A stretch of 32,000 bases of DNA from Vibrio cholerae ATCC 14035 (GCF_000621645.1 NZ_JHXR01000003.1:180001-212000); one strand, 5' to 3'. Positions 5,848 to 14,995 are shown, numbered from the stretch's first letter. Numbers and translations are program-made. Notes: generated by a model from the sequence alone, not told the origin.

Positions 5848-8985
<3,138 letters not shown>

Positions 8986-10162: not shown

Positions 10163-10507
10163 ATGGACTCGGCGTTTTTGACGGTAGGGTACGATGATTT
10201 TGCGCGGCTGGATTTACGTATTGGCACCATTGTTGAGGCAAAGCTTCATCCTCGTTCGACCCGCAACTATATTGTGCAGATTGCGTTGGGAGAGCAGATG
10301 TTGCAAGCCGTCACCGCGTTAGCACCTTATTACTCGGCAGAACAATTACTCAATCAACAAGTGGTGGTGCTGTGCAATCTCAAACCGAGCTTGGTAGCTG
10401 GTGTAGAATCCCACTGCATGCTGCTGTGCGCGGAAACGCAAGATGGAGAAGAGAGTGTATTGCTCACCCCACAACGGATTATCGCCAATGGGGTGAGAAT
10501 CGTTTAG
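10163..10507 (+). CDS. ygjH: tRNA-binding (EMAP/CsaA-type OB-fold) protein
   Basis: 114 aa, colinear with E. coli YgjH as I recall it (DFARLDLRIGTIVEAK, VVVLCNLKP, MLLCAE...ESVLLTP). Confidence 0.75.
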   Translation: MDSAFLTVGYDDFARLDLRIGTIVEAKLHPRSTRNYIVQIALGEQMLQAVTALAPYYSAEQLLNQQVVVLCNLKPSLVAGVESHCMLLCAETQDGEESVLLTPQRIIANGVRIV

Positions 10508-11055
10508 CGTACTGCGGCAATCAGTTGATCAATCAAGCCATGCTGCTCCGGTTTTACCCCCGCCAAGTTGCCGTATTTGGGGGCGTGGCGGTCATTGTCT
10601 AACGGATGTTGCCAGCCCAAGGTTTGCTCGACAAATTGCCGTGCAAACGCTTCGGAAAACTCAAGGCAGCCACTGAGTACGGTATCGACATAGGTTTGCA
10701 CGATCGGGCTTTGTGAACAGGGCGGTTGATGCTGCTCGGTGACGTAAATCCAAATCGGTTTTTCTGGATCAAAATGCTCTTGTGTGTGAATACGATCCGC
10801 GGTTAAAGCGATGCGCTGATAACCACGCTCACGGCGATCAAATTCCGCTAACGCAACCTCATCAATTTCCAACAGCACGCCATTAATTTGCCCGTCGCCT
10901 TGATGAACCACTAAGGGTGAAAGAATGTAACTGTCATCGATTTTGCCAAAATAGCGCACCAATCCGGTTGCGCTGGCGGGAATGGCTCGTCCAGTCTGGC
11001 CGGTTAAACGGCGTGAGGCAGAATTAATCAGGCTTCCATAGCCAAAGATGTACAT
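10504..11055 (-). CDS. ChaC/GGCT-like gamma-glutamylcyclotransferase family protein
   Basis: The N-terminal FGYGSLIN motif and the FDRRERGY (catalytic Glu context) fit the ChaC/AIG2 fold. ATG 11055 has AGGA ~7 nt upstream and avoids overlap with zntB, so I prefer it to the track start at 11091. Confidence 0.7.
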   Translation of the reverse strand: MYIFGYGSLINSASRRLTGQTGRAIPASATGLVRYFGKIDDSYILSPLVVHQGDGQINGVLLEIDEVALAEFDRRERGYQRIALTADRIHTQEHFDPEKPIWIYVTEQHQPPCSQSPIVQTYVDTVLSGCLEFSEAFARQFVEQTLGWQHPLDNDRHAPKYGNLAGVKPEQHGLIDQLIAAVR

Positions 11056-11074
11056 GATGAGTTCCTGTAACGAT

Positions 11075-12016
11075 TTACGATTGATTATCAAAAAAGCGCA
11101 GACGGCGCAAAATCCAAAACTCTAAGCCGAAAATTAGCCCAAGTCCTGCACAAAACAGCCCAAAGGCGATGGGCGATTCAGTCCCCGGAATGCCGCCAAC
11201 GTTCACGCCTAACAAACCCGTTAAGAAACTGGTCGGCAGGAAAATTGCCGCGATCACGGAAAACAAATACGTGTTCTGGTTCATCTTCTCTGCATGGTAC
11301 TGGCGCAGTTCACCTTTGATGATTTCCAGCTCACTCAAGAAGAAGTCCAAGGTTTCGTTAATCCGCGTTACCGTGTTGACGCTGTGGCGCAAACGTAAAT
11401 GTTGGCTCTGCGCCAGGGCGACTTCCGAATTGAGATAATCATCCAAAGCGTATTGCTGCGGCTTAATGAAACGCTTCAATTTGAGCAGTGATTTATGGGT
11501 TTGCATCAGCTCATTACTGAGTTCGAGTTCTTCATCAAACTGGGTGATGCGTTCCTCAATCTGGTCGAGATAGAGGTCGATGTTTTTATTCAGTTCATCG
11601 ACTACACGCACAATCAGTTCTGCCAAATTGGATGGGCCTTGGCCGGCTTCAAGCGCTGTACGCACGGTACTGATCGCTTTCGAAGGTGTTTTACGAGTCG
11701 AGATCAACGCGCCGTGATAATAGAGAATACGCACACTGAGCATATCCGCAGGATCCGCGTTATCGTTAAGATTCACCCCACGCAAGATCAGCAGAAAGTT
11801 CTGTTCATCATACTGCTCAAACAGGGGGCGAGTATCTTCGGCCAACAAACTGTCGATAACCGAAGAGGGAACATTTTGGTCGAGTAACCACTCGCGCAGC
11901 CCTTTAGCATCGCGTTGGCAGTGATACCAATCACCGGCTTGTAGTGTTTGCAATTGAGCAGGATGTCGCTTTGGCGCGGAATCGCCAAAACGCCAGTGAT
12001 CGATGAGAAACTCCAT
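11075..12016 (-). CDS. zntB: CorA-superfamily zinc transporter ZntB
   Basis: The C-terminal FLPTSFLTGLLGVNVGGIPG has the GVN variant of CorA's GMN, followed by TM2, as in E. coli ZntB. ATG 12016 (MEFLIDHW...) has AAGGA ~6 nt upstream and is preferred to 12058. Confidence 0.8.
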   Translation of the reverse strand: MEFLIDHWRFGDSAPKRHPAQLQTLQAGDWYHCQRDAKGLREWLLDQNVPSSVIDSLLAEDTRPLFEQYDEQNFLLILRGVNLNDNADPADMLSVRILYYHGALISTRKTPSKAISTVRTALEAGQGPSNLAELIVRVVDELNKNIDLYLDQIEERITQFDEELELSNELMQTHKSLLKLKRFIKPQQYALDDYLNSEVALAQSQHLRLRHSVNTVTRINETLDFFLSELEIIKGELRQYHAEKMNQNTYLFSVIAAIFLPTSFLTGLLGVNVGGIPGTESPIAFGLFCAGLGLIFGLEFWILRRLRFFDNQS

Positions 12017-12048
12017 GGTGATCCTTGTTTCAAAACCTTGATGGCAAG

Positions 12049-12077
12049 AAAGTAACAATGGAGCGATAAAGAGTCAA
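12049..12077 (-). promoter_or_regulatory. Candidate sigma-70 promoter of zntB
   Basis: On the minus strand TTGACT (12077-12072), a 17-nt spacer, then TACTTT (12054-12049). This sits ~30 nt upstream of ATG 12016. Sequence pattern only. Confidence 0.3.
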
Positions 12078-12100
12078 AGCCCAGAATATTTCTGGGCTTT
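12076..12100 (-). terminator. Hairpin terminator downstream of the ATP-grasp gene and ERIC copy A
   Basis: Perfect 10-bp stem aaagcccaga (12076-12085) / tctgggcttt (12091-12100) with a 5-nt loop. The A/T tracts are built into both arms. Confidence 0.55.
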
Positions 12101-12114
12101 GATTAGAGAAGGAT

Positions 12115-12240
12115 ATTCCCTTCCTACTTGAAGTTGCAGCGGTGTTGGCTACGTTCGTTCACCCCAATCACATAGTCTATCTATGCTCATGGGGACTCAC
12201 TCACTTGCCGCCTACCTGCAACTCCAAGTTGTTTGGGAAT
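12115..12240 (+). repeat. ERIC/IRU-like intergenic repeat, full length (copy A)
   Basis: 126-bp imperfect palindrome. The central ...gttcaccccaatcaca...atgctcatggggactcac... matches ~17-18 of 22 positions of each ERIC-PCR primer site (ERIC2 and ERIC1R). It differs from copy D at only 3 positions. Confidence 0.85.
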
Positions 12241-12247
12241 AAACGGT

Positions 12248-13699
12248 TTAAAAACCACGCATTTGAATGCGGCGTAAGAACTCGGTCATGATGCGATCGT
12301 AGAGCAGATCGCCCAAGAAGGCGTCTTCCACATGGTGATCGATACTTGGGTTATCATTCACTTCAATTACGTAAACTTGACCATCAATCTCTTTAAGATC
12401 CACACCGTAGAGTCCGCCACCAATCAGGTTTGCGGCTTTGACCGCCACATCGACCACATGCTTCGGTACTTGTTTGAGATCGAGCGTTTCAAAGCCACCT
12501 GCGGTCACGCGGCCGCTGTTATGGTGTTGGTAAATCTGCCAGTGGCCACGGCTCATCATGTACTTACAAGCAAAAATCGCTTGACGGTTCATCACCCCGA
12601 TACGCCAGTCAAAGTCGGTCGGCATAAAGGCTTGCGCCAAAATCAGCGCGCTTTTCTCAAACAGGGTACCGGCTTCTTTCTCCAGCTCTTGCTCATTGCG
12701 CACTTTCACCACACCGCGAGAAAAGGCACCATCAGGAATTTTCAGCACCATAGGGAAATCCAACTGCTCCATCAGCCCGGTTTTCCACTCTGGGTCAAAA
12801 CTGCGGATGATCACGCTCTTCGGTGCGGGTACCTTGTTGGTTTCCAACAGCTCAGTCAAAAATACCTTGTTGGTGCATTTCATGATCGATTCAGAGTCAT
12901 CCATCACCACTAAGCCCATCTTCTCAGCGGTTTTCGCGAAGCGATAGGTGTAGTTACTGATGTTGGTGGTGGCGCGAATAAACAGACCATCAAATTCCCC
13001 CAAACGCGACAAATCATCCGGTGAAATGGTTTCCAAGTTCATACCCAAACGGTTGGCGGCGCGATGGAAACGTTTGAGCGCAGAAGCATCAGACGGTGGC
13101 ATTTTTTCATCTGGGTCGACCAGCATTGCGATGTCGTAGCGGTACTTCTTCTCTTGCTTTGGACGACGCCACACTTTGGTAGAGAACATTTCTAGAGACT
13201 CAATGAAGAAATCCTGCTCGGGGTCTTCTAAGTCTTGAAACGGGAAGGGAGCGATTTTGATGATCTGCCATTGCCCTTGGTATTTGTGCATTTCCAGTTC
13301 AATCACGGGCACCATGAACTGCTCAAACAGGCGGCGCGCCAGTTTTTCTAAGCCTTTTTGTGGAGTGCGGCCAAAGTAAATTTTGGTGTTGATGACGTCA
13401 GTGCCACTGTTCAGTTTGTGCATCTTGATCAGGCCGGAAGAGAGGAAAAACGGCTGATTGATGTCATTAATCGCCATCACGCGCGGGATCACGCGGTGGC
13501 CACGGGCTTCGGCCATCAAGGAAACATAGTAACCGCTACTCATGTAGCCGTAATCGCGACACAGGTTGACTACCTGTACACTGCGGTGATTGAATTTCCA
13601 GTCAGTATCGAGATATTGATCGACACTAACAACTTGTTCTGAAGGGAAATATTGTTGCCAGTCACTGACCTGATCGGTCACGATTAAAAGGTTAGCCAT
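12248..13699 (-). CDS. RimK-type ATP-grasp amidoligase with an N-terminal RLAN-like domain
   Basis: 483 aa. The C-terminal ~290 aa are ATP-grasp (FPMVLKIPDGAFSRGV, GGGLYGVDL, and YVIEVNDNPSI as the E-x-N metal/ATP motif). The N-terminal ~190 aa form a non-catalytic-looking alpha/beta region. AGGAAG lies ~10 nt upstream of the ATG. Confidence 0.8.
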   Translation of the reverse strand: MANLLIVTDQVSDWQQYFPSEQVVSVDQYLDTDWKFNHRSVQVVNLCRDYGYMSSGYYVSLMAEARGHRVIPRVMAINDINQPFFLSSGLIKMHKLNSGTDVINTKIYFGRTPQKGLEKLARRLFEQFMVPVIELEMHKYQGQWQIIKIAPFPFQDLEDPEQDFFIESLEMFSTKVWRRPKQEKKYRYDIAMLVDPDEKMPPSDASALKRFHRAANRLGMNLETISPDDLSRLGEFDGLFIRATTNISNYTYRFAKTAEKMGLVVMDDSESIMKCTNKVFLTELLETNKVPAPKSVIIRSFDPEWKTGLMEQLDFPMVLKIPDGAFSRGVVKVRNEQELEKEAGTLFEKSALILAQAFMPTDFDWRIGVMNRQAIFACKYMMSRGHWQIYQHHNSGRVTAGGFETLDLKQVPKHVVDVAVKAANLIGGGLYGVDLKEIDGQVYVIEVNDNPSIDHHVEDAFLGDLLYDRIMTEFLRRIQMRGF

Positions 13700-13730
13700 C
13701 GGTATATTCTTCCTATTGTCATAGGTTTAT

Positions 13731-13852
13731 GCCCTTCCTACTTGTCATGGCAGCGGTGTTGGCTAGGTTCATTCACCCCAAACATAGAGTGAACTATGCT
13801 CATGGGGATGAATTCACTTGCTGCCTACCTGCAACTCCAAGTCGTTTGGGGC
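13731..13852 (+). repeat. ERIC/IRU-like repeat, diverged (copy B)
   Basis: Alignable over its whole length to copies A and D (cccttcctacttg...cagcggtgttggcta...ttcacccca...ctatgctcatgggga...ttcacttgc.gcctacctgcaactccaagt.gtttgggg). It carries clustered substitutions in the left arm and one indel. Confidence 0.8.
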
Positions 13853-13903
13853 TATTATGTGAGTCGCAATCTCGTCAATCCACTCATTATTTAAGGACGT
13901 TGA

Positions 13904-14995
13904 ATGGACATTCGTCGTGCCAATAGCGCTGATCTCAATGCGCTCAATGCGTTAGAACAACAGCTTTTTGACGGGGATAGAATCTCTCCTCGCCAAATGA
14001 AGCGTTTTTTACATTCCGACCATGCGGCGTTATTCGTGGCAGATGCCGGCGACCAGCTGGCGGGATATGCATTGCTTCTATTTCATCAAGGTACACAGCT
14101 ATCAAGATTGTATTCGATTGCCGTAAAACCTGAATTCAGAGGGCAGAGAATTGCTCAGAGTTTAGTCGAGCAATGCGAGCGTGCTGCTCTTGATCAAGGC
14201 TCAACTACATTACGGCTGGAAGTGCGTGAAGACAATACCGCCGCCCTAAAATTATATGAAAAGATGGGCTATAAAACCTTGAAGTTGCTCATCCATTACT
14301 ATGACGATTTGTGCGATGGGCGCAGAATGCAGAAAAGGTTAACGCCTCAAGAGTCCAAAGTCTTGCTGCCGATGCCTTTGTATGTACAAACCACGCCATT
14401 TACTTGTGGTGCAGCCTGTCTGTTAATGAGTTTTGCCTGCTTGGATAAAACCTTTGAGCCGAGCCGCACGCAAGAGATGCAGCTGTGGCGTGAAGCCACC
14501 ACGATTTTTATGGCGGCTGGGCATGGTGGCTGCAGTGGCCAAGGTTTGGCGCTGGCCGCCGCAAGACGTGGCTATCATGTTGAGCTATGGAATCAATCTC
14601 GATCAACGCCTTTTATTGATAGCGTACGTGACCCCAACAAAAAGCAGATCATTGAGTTAGTGCACCAAGATTTTTGCCAGCAACTTACCGAGCAAGATGT
14701 GAGTATGATTGATGCGCCGCCATCGCAAGCCCAGCTTGAAGAGTGGGTACGGCAAGGAGCCTGTGTGCTGCTGCTCATTAGCACGTACCGTTTTGATGGT
14801 AAGAAAGAGCCGCACTGGATTGTGCTCAGTGGCTTGAGTGATAAGTTCTTCTTTTTCCACGATCCGCATGCAGAATCGGAAGAGCATGTGAGCGGTTCGG
14901 GTTATATTCCGGTGGGCAAAGCGGCACTGTCGCAAATCATCGGCTTTGGTAAGCAAAAGCAGATCGCTTGTGTGGTGATCACACCTCGCCTATAG
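13904..14995 (+). CDS. GNAT N-acetyltransferase fused to a papain-like (C39-like) cysteine peptidase domain
   Basis: aa 1-145 are GNAT (…YSIAVKPEFRGQRIAQSLV…LEVREDNTAALKLYEKMGY). aa ~150-363 hold a candidate Cys-His-Asp triad: TPFTCGAACL (Cys168, nt 14405-14407), EPHWIVL (His304) and FHDP (Asp320). AAGGA lies 6 nt upstream of the ATG. Confidence 0.8.
   Translation: MDIRRANSADLNALNALEQQLFDGDRISPRQMKRFLHSDHAALFVADAGDQLAGYALLLFHQGTQLSRLYSIAVKPEFRGQRIAQSLVEQCERAALDQGSTTLRLEVREDNTAALKLYEKMGYKTLKLLIHYYDDLCDGRRMQKRLTPQESKVLLPMPLYVQTTPFTCGAACLLMSFACLDKTFEPSRTQEMQLWREATTIFMAAGHGGCSGQGLALAAARRGYHVELWNQSRSTPFIDSVRDPNKKQIIELVHQDFCQQLTEQDVSMIDAPPSQAQLEEWVRQGACVLLLISTYRFDGKKEPHWIVLSGLSDKFFFFHDPHAESEEHVSGSGYIPVGKAALSQIIGFGKQKQIACVVITPRL

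Follow-up and report, generated by a model that had tools for sequence, protein, structure and literature searches.

The closest described relatives of the gene pair analysed here belong to an association between RLAN-ATP-grasp ligases (RLAN being PF14401) and GNAT proteins that may also carry a papain-like domain (PF11814). Iyer, Abhiman, Burroughs and Aravind reportedly catalogued this association by comparative genomics in Mol Biosyst in 2009, and their description is said to have been purely computational, naming no substrate or product. The pair studied here occupies positions 12248-14995 of a 32,000-nucleotide stretch of Vibrio cholerae ATCC 14035 (NZ_JHXR01000003.1:180001-212000), which we refer to as the window, and it is a typical member, with the same domains and the same linkage. 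A 2023 survey of papain-like peptidases in JBC, citing Iyer et al. 2009, states that members of DUF3335, the papain-like family present here, are often fused to GNAT (PMC10318531). A search across 8 million full texts found no experimental study of the substrate, product or phenotype of such a system. The first-pass annotation of this DNA had therefore been right to call the system undescribed as far as experiment goes, but not in general, because the association was already catalogued computationally. Amidoligase, GNAT and peptidase systems are of a known kind, predicted in 2009, so that no concept is overturned and a specialist would not be surprised. What we add beyond the catalogued association are linkage counts, both fusion orders, an optional DUF2817 gene, a comparison with the RimK active site and the hypothesis that RLAN is a duplicate of the ATP-grasp module. 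Our tentative preference is to see the pair as a cytoplasmic two-gene module that makes, caps and cleaves a short N-acetylated, probably acidic, peptide.

The cap-ligate-cleave logic that we propose has a mammalian parallel. NAT8L makes N-acetylaspartate, RIMKLA and RIMKLB make N-acetylaspartylglutamate or beta-citrylglutamate, and a dedicated peptidase degrades the dipeptide. The mammalian enzymes lack RLAN and DUF3335, however, and we do not claim orthology. In bacteria, Ngg is a GNAT plus ATP-grasp enzyme that makes the osmolyte N-acetylglutaminylglutamine, and its partners in the NAGGN trio (TIGR03103) are an amidotransferase of the AsnO type and a peptidase of family M42. GNAT and ATP-grasp are fused in Ngg just as they are in 15 of 149 relatives of the V. 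cholerae ligase (see below), and there is a peptidase gene in its cluster. In contrast, the window GNAT reaches only 26 bits against a TIGR03103 cutoff of 569, no amidotransferase or M42 gene lies nearby, and Ngg has no RLAN domain. The main features of the window locus are as follows.

12248..13699, (-) strand: RLAN plus RimK-type ATP-grasp ligase gene, 483 amino acids (aa), ATG start
13151..13699, (-) strand: RLAN domain, aa 1-183 (PF14401)
12251..13150, (-) strand: pre-ATP-grasp plus ATP-grasp module, aa 184-483 (profile alignment to E. coli RimK 5ZCT)
13904..14995, (+) strand: gene for a fusion of GNAT with DUF3335 (C39-like, papain fold), 363 aa, ATG start
13904..14347, (+) strand: GNAT domain, aa 1-148 (TIGR01575, PDB sequence matches, Foldseek)
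14372..14980, (+) strand: DUF3335/C39-like papain-fold domain, aa 157-359 (PF11814)
13700..13903, no strand: divergent intergenic region, which from the sequence must hold both promoters

Both open reading frames (ORFs) lie exactly where the first-pass annotation had placed them, head to head across a gap of 204 bp (13700-13903), and the codon positions of the catalytic and substrate residues were confirmed against the DNA coordinates. The ligase, which carries the database names 'RimK family protein' and 'S6 modification protein-related', is 100% identical to V. cholerae proteins, and the GNAT-peptidase is 99% identical to a V. cholerae 'GNAT family N-acetyltransferase/peptidase C39 family protein'. 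Since both proteins occur at 99-100% identity on 507 to >1000 V. cholerae contigs, these are core V. cholerae genes and not chance reading frames. The GC content of the locus, ~0.48-0.49, is unremarkable; neither N-terminus has a signal-peptide-like hydrophobic stretch when the translations are inspected by eye; and neither protein matched any family of the PADLOC-DB 2.0 defence models (0 families at E <= 0.01). AlphaFold2 (AF2) models were obtained with a mean predicted local distance difference test score (pLDDT) of 82.9 for the ligase, and with a pLDDT of 89.4 and a predicted TM-score (pTM) of 0.79 for the GNAT-peptidase. Conservation was judged from alignments of 38 homologues of each protein and, for the ligase, also of 108 diverse homologues. 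Pfam searches gave strong matches to RLAN, RimK, Acetyltransf_1 and the C39-like family, in line with the domains first assigned from the sequence; a lack of such matches is one of the outcomes that the first-pass annotation would have taken as refuting its proposal.

The catalytic part of the ligase matches Pfam RimK (PF08443) at aa 277-455 with an E value of 9.5e-12 (45.3 bits, cutoff 21), and the best Foldseek matches to this half of the model are Ddl, LysX, ArgX and RimK, with E about 1e-17. The E-x-N motif that had first drawn attention to the protein is intact, E446 and N448 being invariant in 38/38 homologues and present in >=90% of the 108 diverse ones. For the comparison with RimK, the family profile was aligned to E. 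coli RimK 5ZCT and the residue roles were taken from a published study (PMC10375531). The ATP- and Mg-binding residues K100, K141, D248, E260 and N262 of RimK correspond to K278, K320, D434, E446 and N448 of the ligase, all of them conserved in >=90% of the 108 sequences. R189 of RimK holds the carboxylate to be phosphorylated and R64 binds the incoming glutamate by its side chain (PMC10375531); their counterparts, R366 and R242, are invariant or >=90% conserved. RimK also has a positively charged belt, R96, R98 and R102, that guides the poly-glutamate tail (PMC10375531). The equivalent positions of the ligase are K274, T276 and F280, and this loss of the belt arginines argues against processive poly-glutamylation. 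Taken together, these residues point to an active site that adds a glutamate-like residue once or a few times.

The ligase thus shares with the RimK proteins of E. coli and Pseudomonas (5ZCT, 4IWX, 7QYR) the fold of the ATP-grasp subfamily, the ATP/Mg residues and both substrate arginines, but differs from them in having RLAN and an obligate GNAT partner, in lacking the belt, and in showing an invariant H-W-Q-I-Y-x-H in place of the F-R-S-N-L-H-R-G-G motif of RimK and GshB-type enzymes. It scores 30.0 bits against the RimK equivalog model NF007764, whose cutoff is 331, and 90.8 bits against the subfamily model TIGR00768 (rimK_fam), whose cutoff is 143.4. The curated families closest to it are rimK_fam, LysX, MptN and CofF; it falls below the cutoff of each, and all four ligate glutamate-type amines. 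With both the equivalog and the subfamily score under cutoff, the ligase is not a RimK orthologue, a possibility that the first-pass annotation had named as fatal to its proposal.

The RLAN domain itself is unambiguous, with a PF14401 match at aa 27-167 that covers profile positions 2-149 of 150 (E 1.7e-41; 141.8 bits, cutoff 25) and a conserved motif N45-L-C47 ... G56-Y-Y-x-S-L-x-A-x-A-R66-G-H68 ... P72. When aa 20-170 were compared by HHalign with aa 221-424 of the same family, a match of 142 collinear columns was found (score 35.8, P 9.7e-5, HHalign probability 58%), while 30 column-shuffled control profiles scored at most 20.8. The predicted order of secondary-structure elements in the AF2 model also agrees between RLAN and the ATP-grasp module. 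From the collinear match and the agreeing order we propose that RLAN arose as an ATP-grasp duplicate; nothing in it corresponds to the lysine strand that binds ATP or to the Mg ligands. As a new hypothesis, then, RLAN is probably a degenerate, non-catalytic duplicate of the neighbouring module. Against a two-sequence profile of genuine RimK proteins RLAN scored 12.9, which is not significant, in a short match that keeps the register of the internal alignment. The N-terminal ~190 aa, first described as having no catalytic motif, are thus probably not a blank region. Profile searches found no robust PDB relative of RLAN by sequence. RqcH appeared with a shallow profile (E 1.2e-3) and was lost with a diverse one, and eS12 appeared with the diverse profile (E 4e-3) and changes with the profile used; both were taken as chance.

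The GNAT domain matches Acetyltransf_1 at aa 30-123 (E 2.1e-19), which agrees with the N-terminal GNAT domain (aa 1-145) first noted. It scores 83.0 bits against TIGR01575 (rimI), just under the cutoff of 86.4, and it is fused to a peptidase domain of 210 aa, whereas RimI stands alone at about 150 aa. Its PDB sequence matches are YpeA, Naa30 and RimI, and Foldseek places RimI (5isv, 2cnm) and Ard1 on top, with E values of 1e-12 to 1e-10 and TM-scores of about 0.82-0.87 on the target. SpeG and PaiA, which acetylate polyamines, are also among the Foldseek matches (E about 1e-10), below the RimI and Naa proteins. E106 and Y118 are invariant among the 38 homologues, and the loop that binds coenzyme A (CoA) reads R79-G-Q-R-I-A84. 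In the PDB alignments E106 and Y118 are offset by 3 from RimI chain positions, and we take the RimI catalytic residues to be E103 and Y115, assuming both this numbering and their roles. By sequence and by model, the domain is closest to the N-alpha-acetyltransferases of the RimI/Naa10 type.

The second domain of the fusion protein matches PF11814 (DUF3335, 'Peptidase_C39 like family') over aa 157-359 with an E value of 1.5e-75, and Peptidase_C39_2 with an E value of 4.4e-4. Q162, of the oxyanion type and six residues ahead of the cysteine, is invariant in the 38 homologues, as are C168, H304 and D320. In the AF2 model a helix begins with C168 and a strand with H304, the arrangement known from papain-like folds. 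Q162, C168, H304 and D320 make up a predicted oxyanion-plus-triad set, in the right order within a papain-like fold, and the triad proposed at first reading is the same. The other invariant motifs are W195-R-E-A-T-T and G206-H-G-G-C210. Searched against the PDB, the domain profile gave motif-level matches to the double-glycine protease of PCAT (6mpz) and to BtrH, with E values of 0.01-0.06. The Q-x5-C-G and H...D-P motifs do align with those of the C39 domains of bacteriocin and PCAT exporters of the ATP-binding cassette (ABC) type (PF03412; 6MPZ). However, overall similarity to the PCAT domain is not significant (E 0.012), PF03412 is not one of the 14 families listed at E <= 0.1, and the protein is a cytoplasmic one. 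No ABC transporter, precursor ORF or double-glycine leader is found nearby, so the canonical context of a C39 exporter is absent.

The GHGGC motif (H207 and C210; aa 201-211, window 14504-14536) lies in the loop of the model with the lowest confidence (block pLDDT 66) and provides a second conserved His/Cys pair beside the catalytic dyad. In locus L083, a more distant C39-like homologue that stands alone reads P-D-G-G-T at this site, without its His and Cys. The motif may serve as a lid, as a metal or redox site, or provide a second nucleophile.

Relatives of the ligase were found in >=588 species genomes (one genome per species was scanned), among them Pseudomonas, Shewanella, Marinobacter, Rhodanobacter and methanotrophs. 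Linkage was counted in the best 80 loci, all from other Gammaproteobacteria, by tblastn with the three domains searched separately; the sample covers Vibrionaceae, Shewanella, Ferrimonas, Pseudomonas, Marinobacter, Halomonadaceae, Microbulbifer, Methylomonas/Methylobacter, Methylophaga, Rhodanobacter, Dyella, Frateuria and other Lysobacterales. A cognate GNAT adjoins the ligase in 77/80 loci; the two are divergent in 76 and within 400 bp of each other in 67. When 1.84 billion representative proteins were searched exhaustively, 401 clusters were obtained at E <= 1e-30, and architectures were assigned by local hidden Markov model searches to the best 149 of these relatives, which are representatives at 50% identity. 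Fourteen have the order GNAT-RLAN-ATP-grasp and one has the order RLAN-ATP-grasp-GNAT. The linkage in 77/80 loci, together with these fusions, makes ligase and GNAT an obligate pair, and the neighbour is not an incidental one. The first-pass annotation had made its proposal depend on such co-conservation, and its statement that a GNAT is nearly always the neighbour, in some cases with a papain-like domain attached, agrees with these counts.

The C39-like domain is far less constant. It follows the GNAT in 44/80 loci and is missing from 33 of the 77 that have a GNAT; GNAT alone was seen in the sampled Rhodanobacter, Dyella, Frateuria and other Lysobacterales, and in some loci of Pseudomonas and Halomonadaceae. 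In 9/80 loci a DUF2817 gene lies between the ligase and GNAT genes, and its product has HxxE, NRN and H motifs and resembles two M14 enzymes of the PDB, REP34 and MpaA, at the level of weak matches. A peptidase domain present in only 44 of the loci, and DUF2817 in 9, fit accessory hydrolases better than an essential biosynthetic step. As judged from these gene contents, the putative papain-like and M14-like hydrolases are accessories to a ligase-GNAT core. The three activities first proposed for the pair (ligase, transferase and peptidase) are thus borne out in their domains and linkage, but the peptidase is optional and would be an accessory rather than part of the core.

Three of the 149 relatives are fused to a GCS2 carboxylate-amine ligase; one of the three (P0381) is a fragment with no RLAN match. 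In the one GCS2-fusion neighbourhood inspected (P0340, at locus L083), the fusion gene is part of an operon, flanked there by a C39-like gene that stands alone and by a GNAT gene. The GCS2 fusions and this operon suggest a product with two or more amide bonds. ORF clustering found no third conserved gene in the 80 loci, whether target, precursor or dedicated transporter; the neighbours that did cluster are clade-specific housekeeping genes (AroE, XerC, UvrB, an aminotransferase). Further ORF clusters were rejected as spurious antisense ORFs of high-GC genomes. No conserved small ORF lies beside the pair in the window or in five loci with fused architecture, the small ORFs present being mutually unrelated.

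The domain identities, the conserved catalytic residues, the linkage, the fusions and the separation from RimK are direct observations. From them we infer the substrates, the product, the order of steps and the roles of the hydrolase and of RLAN in the scheme that we tentatively favour. The ATP-grasp module would activate a carboxylate as an acyl-phosphate and couple it to an amino acid through the amino group of the latter; that this amine substrate is glutamate or a similar acidic residue is suggested by family precedent and by the retained equivalents of RimK R64 and R189. The RimI-like GNAT would use acetyl-CoA to cap the alpha-amino end of an amino acid or short peptide, and the outcome would be a short peptide, N-acetylated and probably acidic, that is made independently of the ribosome. 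The fused papain-like domain, or the M14-like DUF2817 protein in some lineages, may act as an antagonistic hydrolase that trims or recycles this product, much as the papain-fold amidase domain does in glutathionylspermidine synthetase/amidase, and RLAN may serve as a catalytically dead ATP-grasp duplicate that is a scaffold or a substrate-binding partner. If so, two proteins, ATP, acetyl-CoA and amino acids are expected to suffice as a minimal set, with glutamate-type substrates favoured and both processive poly-glutamylation and the chemistry of peptides made on the ribosome and modified after translation (RiPPs) disfavoured. The natural variants that lack the peptidase, and those fused into one chain, would be simpler test enzymes. 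The two genes are a widespread and tractable core pair of a major pathogen, whose product would be either an N-acetylated peptide metabolite or a protein tail.

Several points weigh against this scheme. The closest characterised relatives of the two proteins, RimI, Naa10, RimK and LysX/ArgX, all act on proteins or carrier proteins, which makes a protein target a serious alternative, and the lack of a target gene nearby is weak evidence because the target gene of RimK is also unlinked. The replacement of FRSNLHRGG by HWQIYxH means that substrate specificity could differ from glutamate. Papain-fold domains can be transferases, as in BtrH and phytochelatin synthase, and the weak BtrH match leaves room for this here. 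Finally, the idea that RLAN is a duplicate stands on a single profile-profile result (58%) that was not reproduced with the RimK profile.

The best of the alternatives, which we nevertheless regard as unlikely, is reversible tailing of a protein. An unlinked housekeeping protein would receive a tail of one or a few amino acids, attached by the ATP-grasp enzyme at its C-terminus or on a side chain; the GNAT would acetylate the N-terminus of that protein, and the hydrolase would remove the tail. Precedents for such tailing are RimK on S6 and TTL and TTLL on tubulin, with vasohibins and cytosolic carboxypeptidases as erasers. The nearest relatives of both proteins (RimK, LysX/ArgX, RimI and Naa10) act on proteins, and the GNAT misses the rimI cutoff only narrowly. 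The R189 equivalent, which in RimK, LysX and TTL holds a polypeptide C-terminus, is conserved, and the two kinds of accessory hydrolase, papain-fold and M14-like, are the two classes of eraser that oppose the ATP-grasp tubulin ligases. However, no candidate target is co-conserved in the 80 neighbourhoods, the basic belt that RimK uses for an acidic tail is missing, and fusion to GCS2, a family of small-molecule gamma-glutamyl ligation, fits a metabolite better. In its most specific form, that of a bacterial write-and-erase system for a short tail on an unlinked protein, with an ATP-grasp writer, papain-fold and M14-like erasers and coupled RimI-like acetylation, the idea is somewhat less likely again. 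If true, it would be a prokaryotic counterpart of the tyrosination/glutamylation cycle of tubulin, in V. cholerae and in the sampled Pseudomonas, Shewanella and Marinobacter.

We think it improbable that the ligase instead conjugates a carboxylate with either a polyamine or a basic amino acid, with a papain-like amidase under redox or demand control cleaving the conjugate and the GNAT acetylating the free amine. The precedent would be E. coli Gss, the glutathionylspermidine synthetase/amidase, which likewise pairs an ATP-dependent amide ligase, of ATP-grasp type, with a papain-fold amidase that undoes its product. Gss, however, uses other ligase and amidase families, as no Pfam match to GSP_synth or CHAP was obtained here, and in the window the ligase is a separate protein and the papain-like domain is fused to GNAT. 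The SpeG and PaiA matches of the GNAT are what one would look for in such a system, as is the loss of the basic residues with which RimK guides its acidic substrate; D195, in the first strand of the pre-ATP-grasp domain, is acidic and nearly invariant in the 38-homologue alignment. Against this, SpeG and PaiA rank below RimI and Naa, the R64 equivalent that in RimK binds the side-chain carboxylate of glutamate is kept, and no polyamine genes lie nearby.

Slightly more doubtful still is a butirosin-like transferase or protecting-group chemistry in secondary metabolism, in which the papain-like domain would transfer the ligase product to an acceptor. Butirosin biosynthesis employs the ATP-grasp enzyme BtrJ, the papain-fold acyltransferase BtrH and the gamma-glutamyl cyclotransferase BtrG. 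Such a reading could draw on the match between the C39-like domain profile and BtrH structures, which is weak and not significant (E about 0.055), and on a GGACT/AIG2-like gene that lies two genes from the V. cholerae ligase and is kept near it in V. vulnificus. As a BtrG analogue, though, GGACT is limited to Vibrio synteny, with none within 6 kb in the 80 other loci, and the surroundings are of a housekeeping kind, with no carrier protein, no genes for nonribosomal peptide or polyketide synthases, and no tailoring or export genes.

A graspetide, that is, a microviridin-type RiPP cross-linked by the ATP-grasp enzyme, freed of its leader by C39 and acetylated by the GNAT at the new N-terminus, is very improbable. 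Microviridin clusters do employ the same three enzyme classes, and fusion of GNAT with C39 would couple leader cleavage to N-acetylation, but no conserved small precursor ORF lies beside the genes in V. cholerae or in the fused-architecture loci, the peptidase is missing from so many of the GNAT-bearing loci, and there is no ABC exporter. The view that the ligase is an ordinary RimK orthologue glutamylating S6, with an unrelated acetyltransferase next door, as an older annotation ('ribosomal protein S6 modification protein-related') would have it, is refuted for practical purposes by both membership scores, by the additional 183-aa RLAN domain, by the loss of the belt arginines and of FRSNLHRGG, and by the GNAT linkage and fusions.

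The intergenic region of V. cholerae carries a dispersed repeat, V_AS5 ('Vibrio RNA AS5' in Rfam), that recurs twice more in the window.

13732..13855, (-) strand: diverged V_AS5 repeat (Rfam RF02818), 42.9 bits, E 3e-7
12118..12242, (-) strand: V_AS5 repeat copy (RF02818), 106.3 bits
20188..20312, (-) strand: V_AS5 repeat copy (RF02818), 100.8 bits

The ligase gene is bracketed by two V_AS5 copies of ~125 nt on the same strand, about 85-89% identical. The orthologous spacers of V. ordalii and V. vulnificus are 66-70 bp long and lack the repeat; the 204-bp length of the V. cholerae spacer is thus due to insertion of the ~125-nt repeat 5' of the ligase gene, and the intergenic V_AS5 copy is not part of the conserved module. 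An 8-nt inverted repeat is found at 13776-13783 and 13844-13851. A promoter scan gave no sigma-70 consensus match in 13700-13903, and no riboswitch or leader RNA was found upstream of either gene. A 65-aa ORF at 13729-13926(+), located in this repeat and overlapping the GNAT gene at its start, is almost certainly spurious. At blastn sensitivity, the V_AS5-type repeat occurs in only 6/5426 E. coli genomes, at up to 84% identity, and, going by the ERIC primer sequences, it resembles ERIC/IRU elements. An antisense RNA candidate of 116 nt, 'AS6', was described by Liu et al. 2009 against VC2332, at 2482288-2482403 of N16961 (PMC2665243). AS6 is probably one of the V_AS5-type copies, that at 12118-12242 or that at 13732-13855. 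We take nnrS to be VC2330, in which case VC2332 would presumably be the ligase or the 65-aa ORF.

The neighbours of the pair in the window are zntB, GGACT, nnrS and dapD. The gene next to the ligase is the following.

11075-12058, (-) strand: ZntB/CorA-family gene zntB

The true start of zntB may lie downstream of the annotated TTG at 12058, as an ATG at 12016 gives 'MEFLIDHW'. Between the V_AS5 repeat and the zntB start lies a hairpin with a 13-bp stem at 12074-12102(-) (TCAAAGCCCAGAA...TTCTGGGCTTTGA) and a weak T tail, which may terminate ligase transcription or belong to the flank of the repeat. The GGACT/AIG2-like gene, of the gamma-glutamyl cyclotransferase family, is at 10504-11091(-) and overlaps the end of zntB by 17 bp; in V. 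vulnificus it has stayed near the pair despite rearrangement, while the CorA-family gene is found there on the opposite side of the pair, having changed places.

Similar transporters stand beside the ligase elsewhere. Six Pseudomonas loci (L053, L056, L060, L064, L073, L078) have a CorA-like gene 7-30 bp downstream of the ligase on the same strand (about 7490-8430(+)), and five Marinobacter loci (L048, L050, L055, L063, L076) have a convergent CDF (Cation_efflux) gene (about 7520-8750(-)). Divalent-cation transporters are thus found beside the ligase in three clades, which is suggestive rather than general. In one locus with fused architecture (L084/L085) a CitMHS/DcuC-type transporter gene lies immediately upstream. 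These neighbours may be coincidental, or they may hint that the pair is linked to metals or anions. S6 is the substrate of RimK, and an RpsF-leader RNA, the leader of the S6 operon (RF02893, 42.5 bits), is present at 12659-12741(-) of locus L002, about 5 kb from the ligase of Photobacterium galatheae, where we take it to be coincidental synteny.

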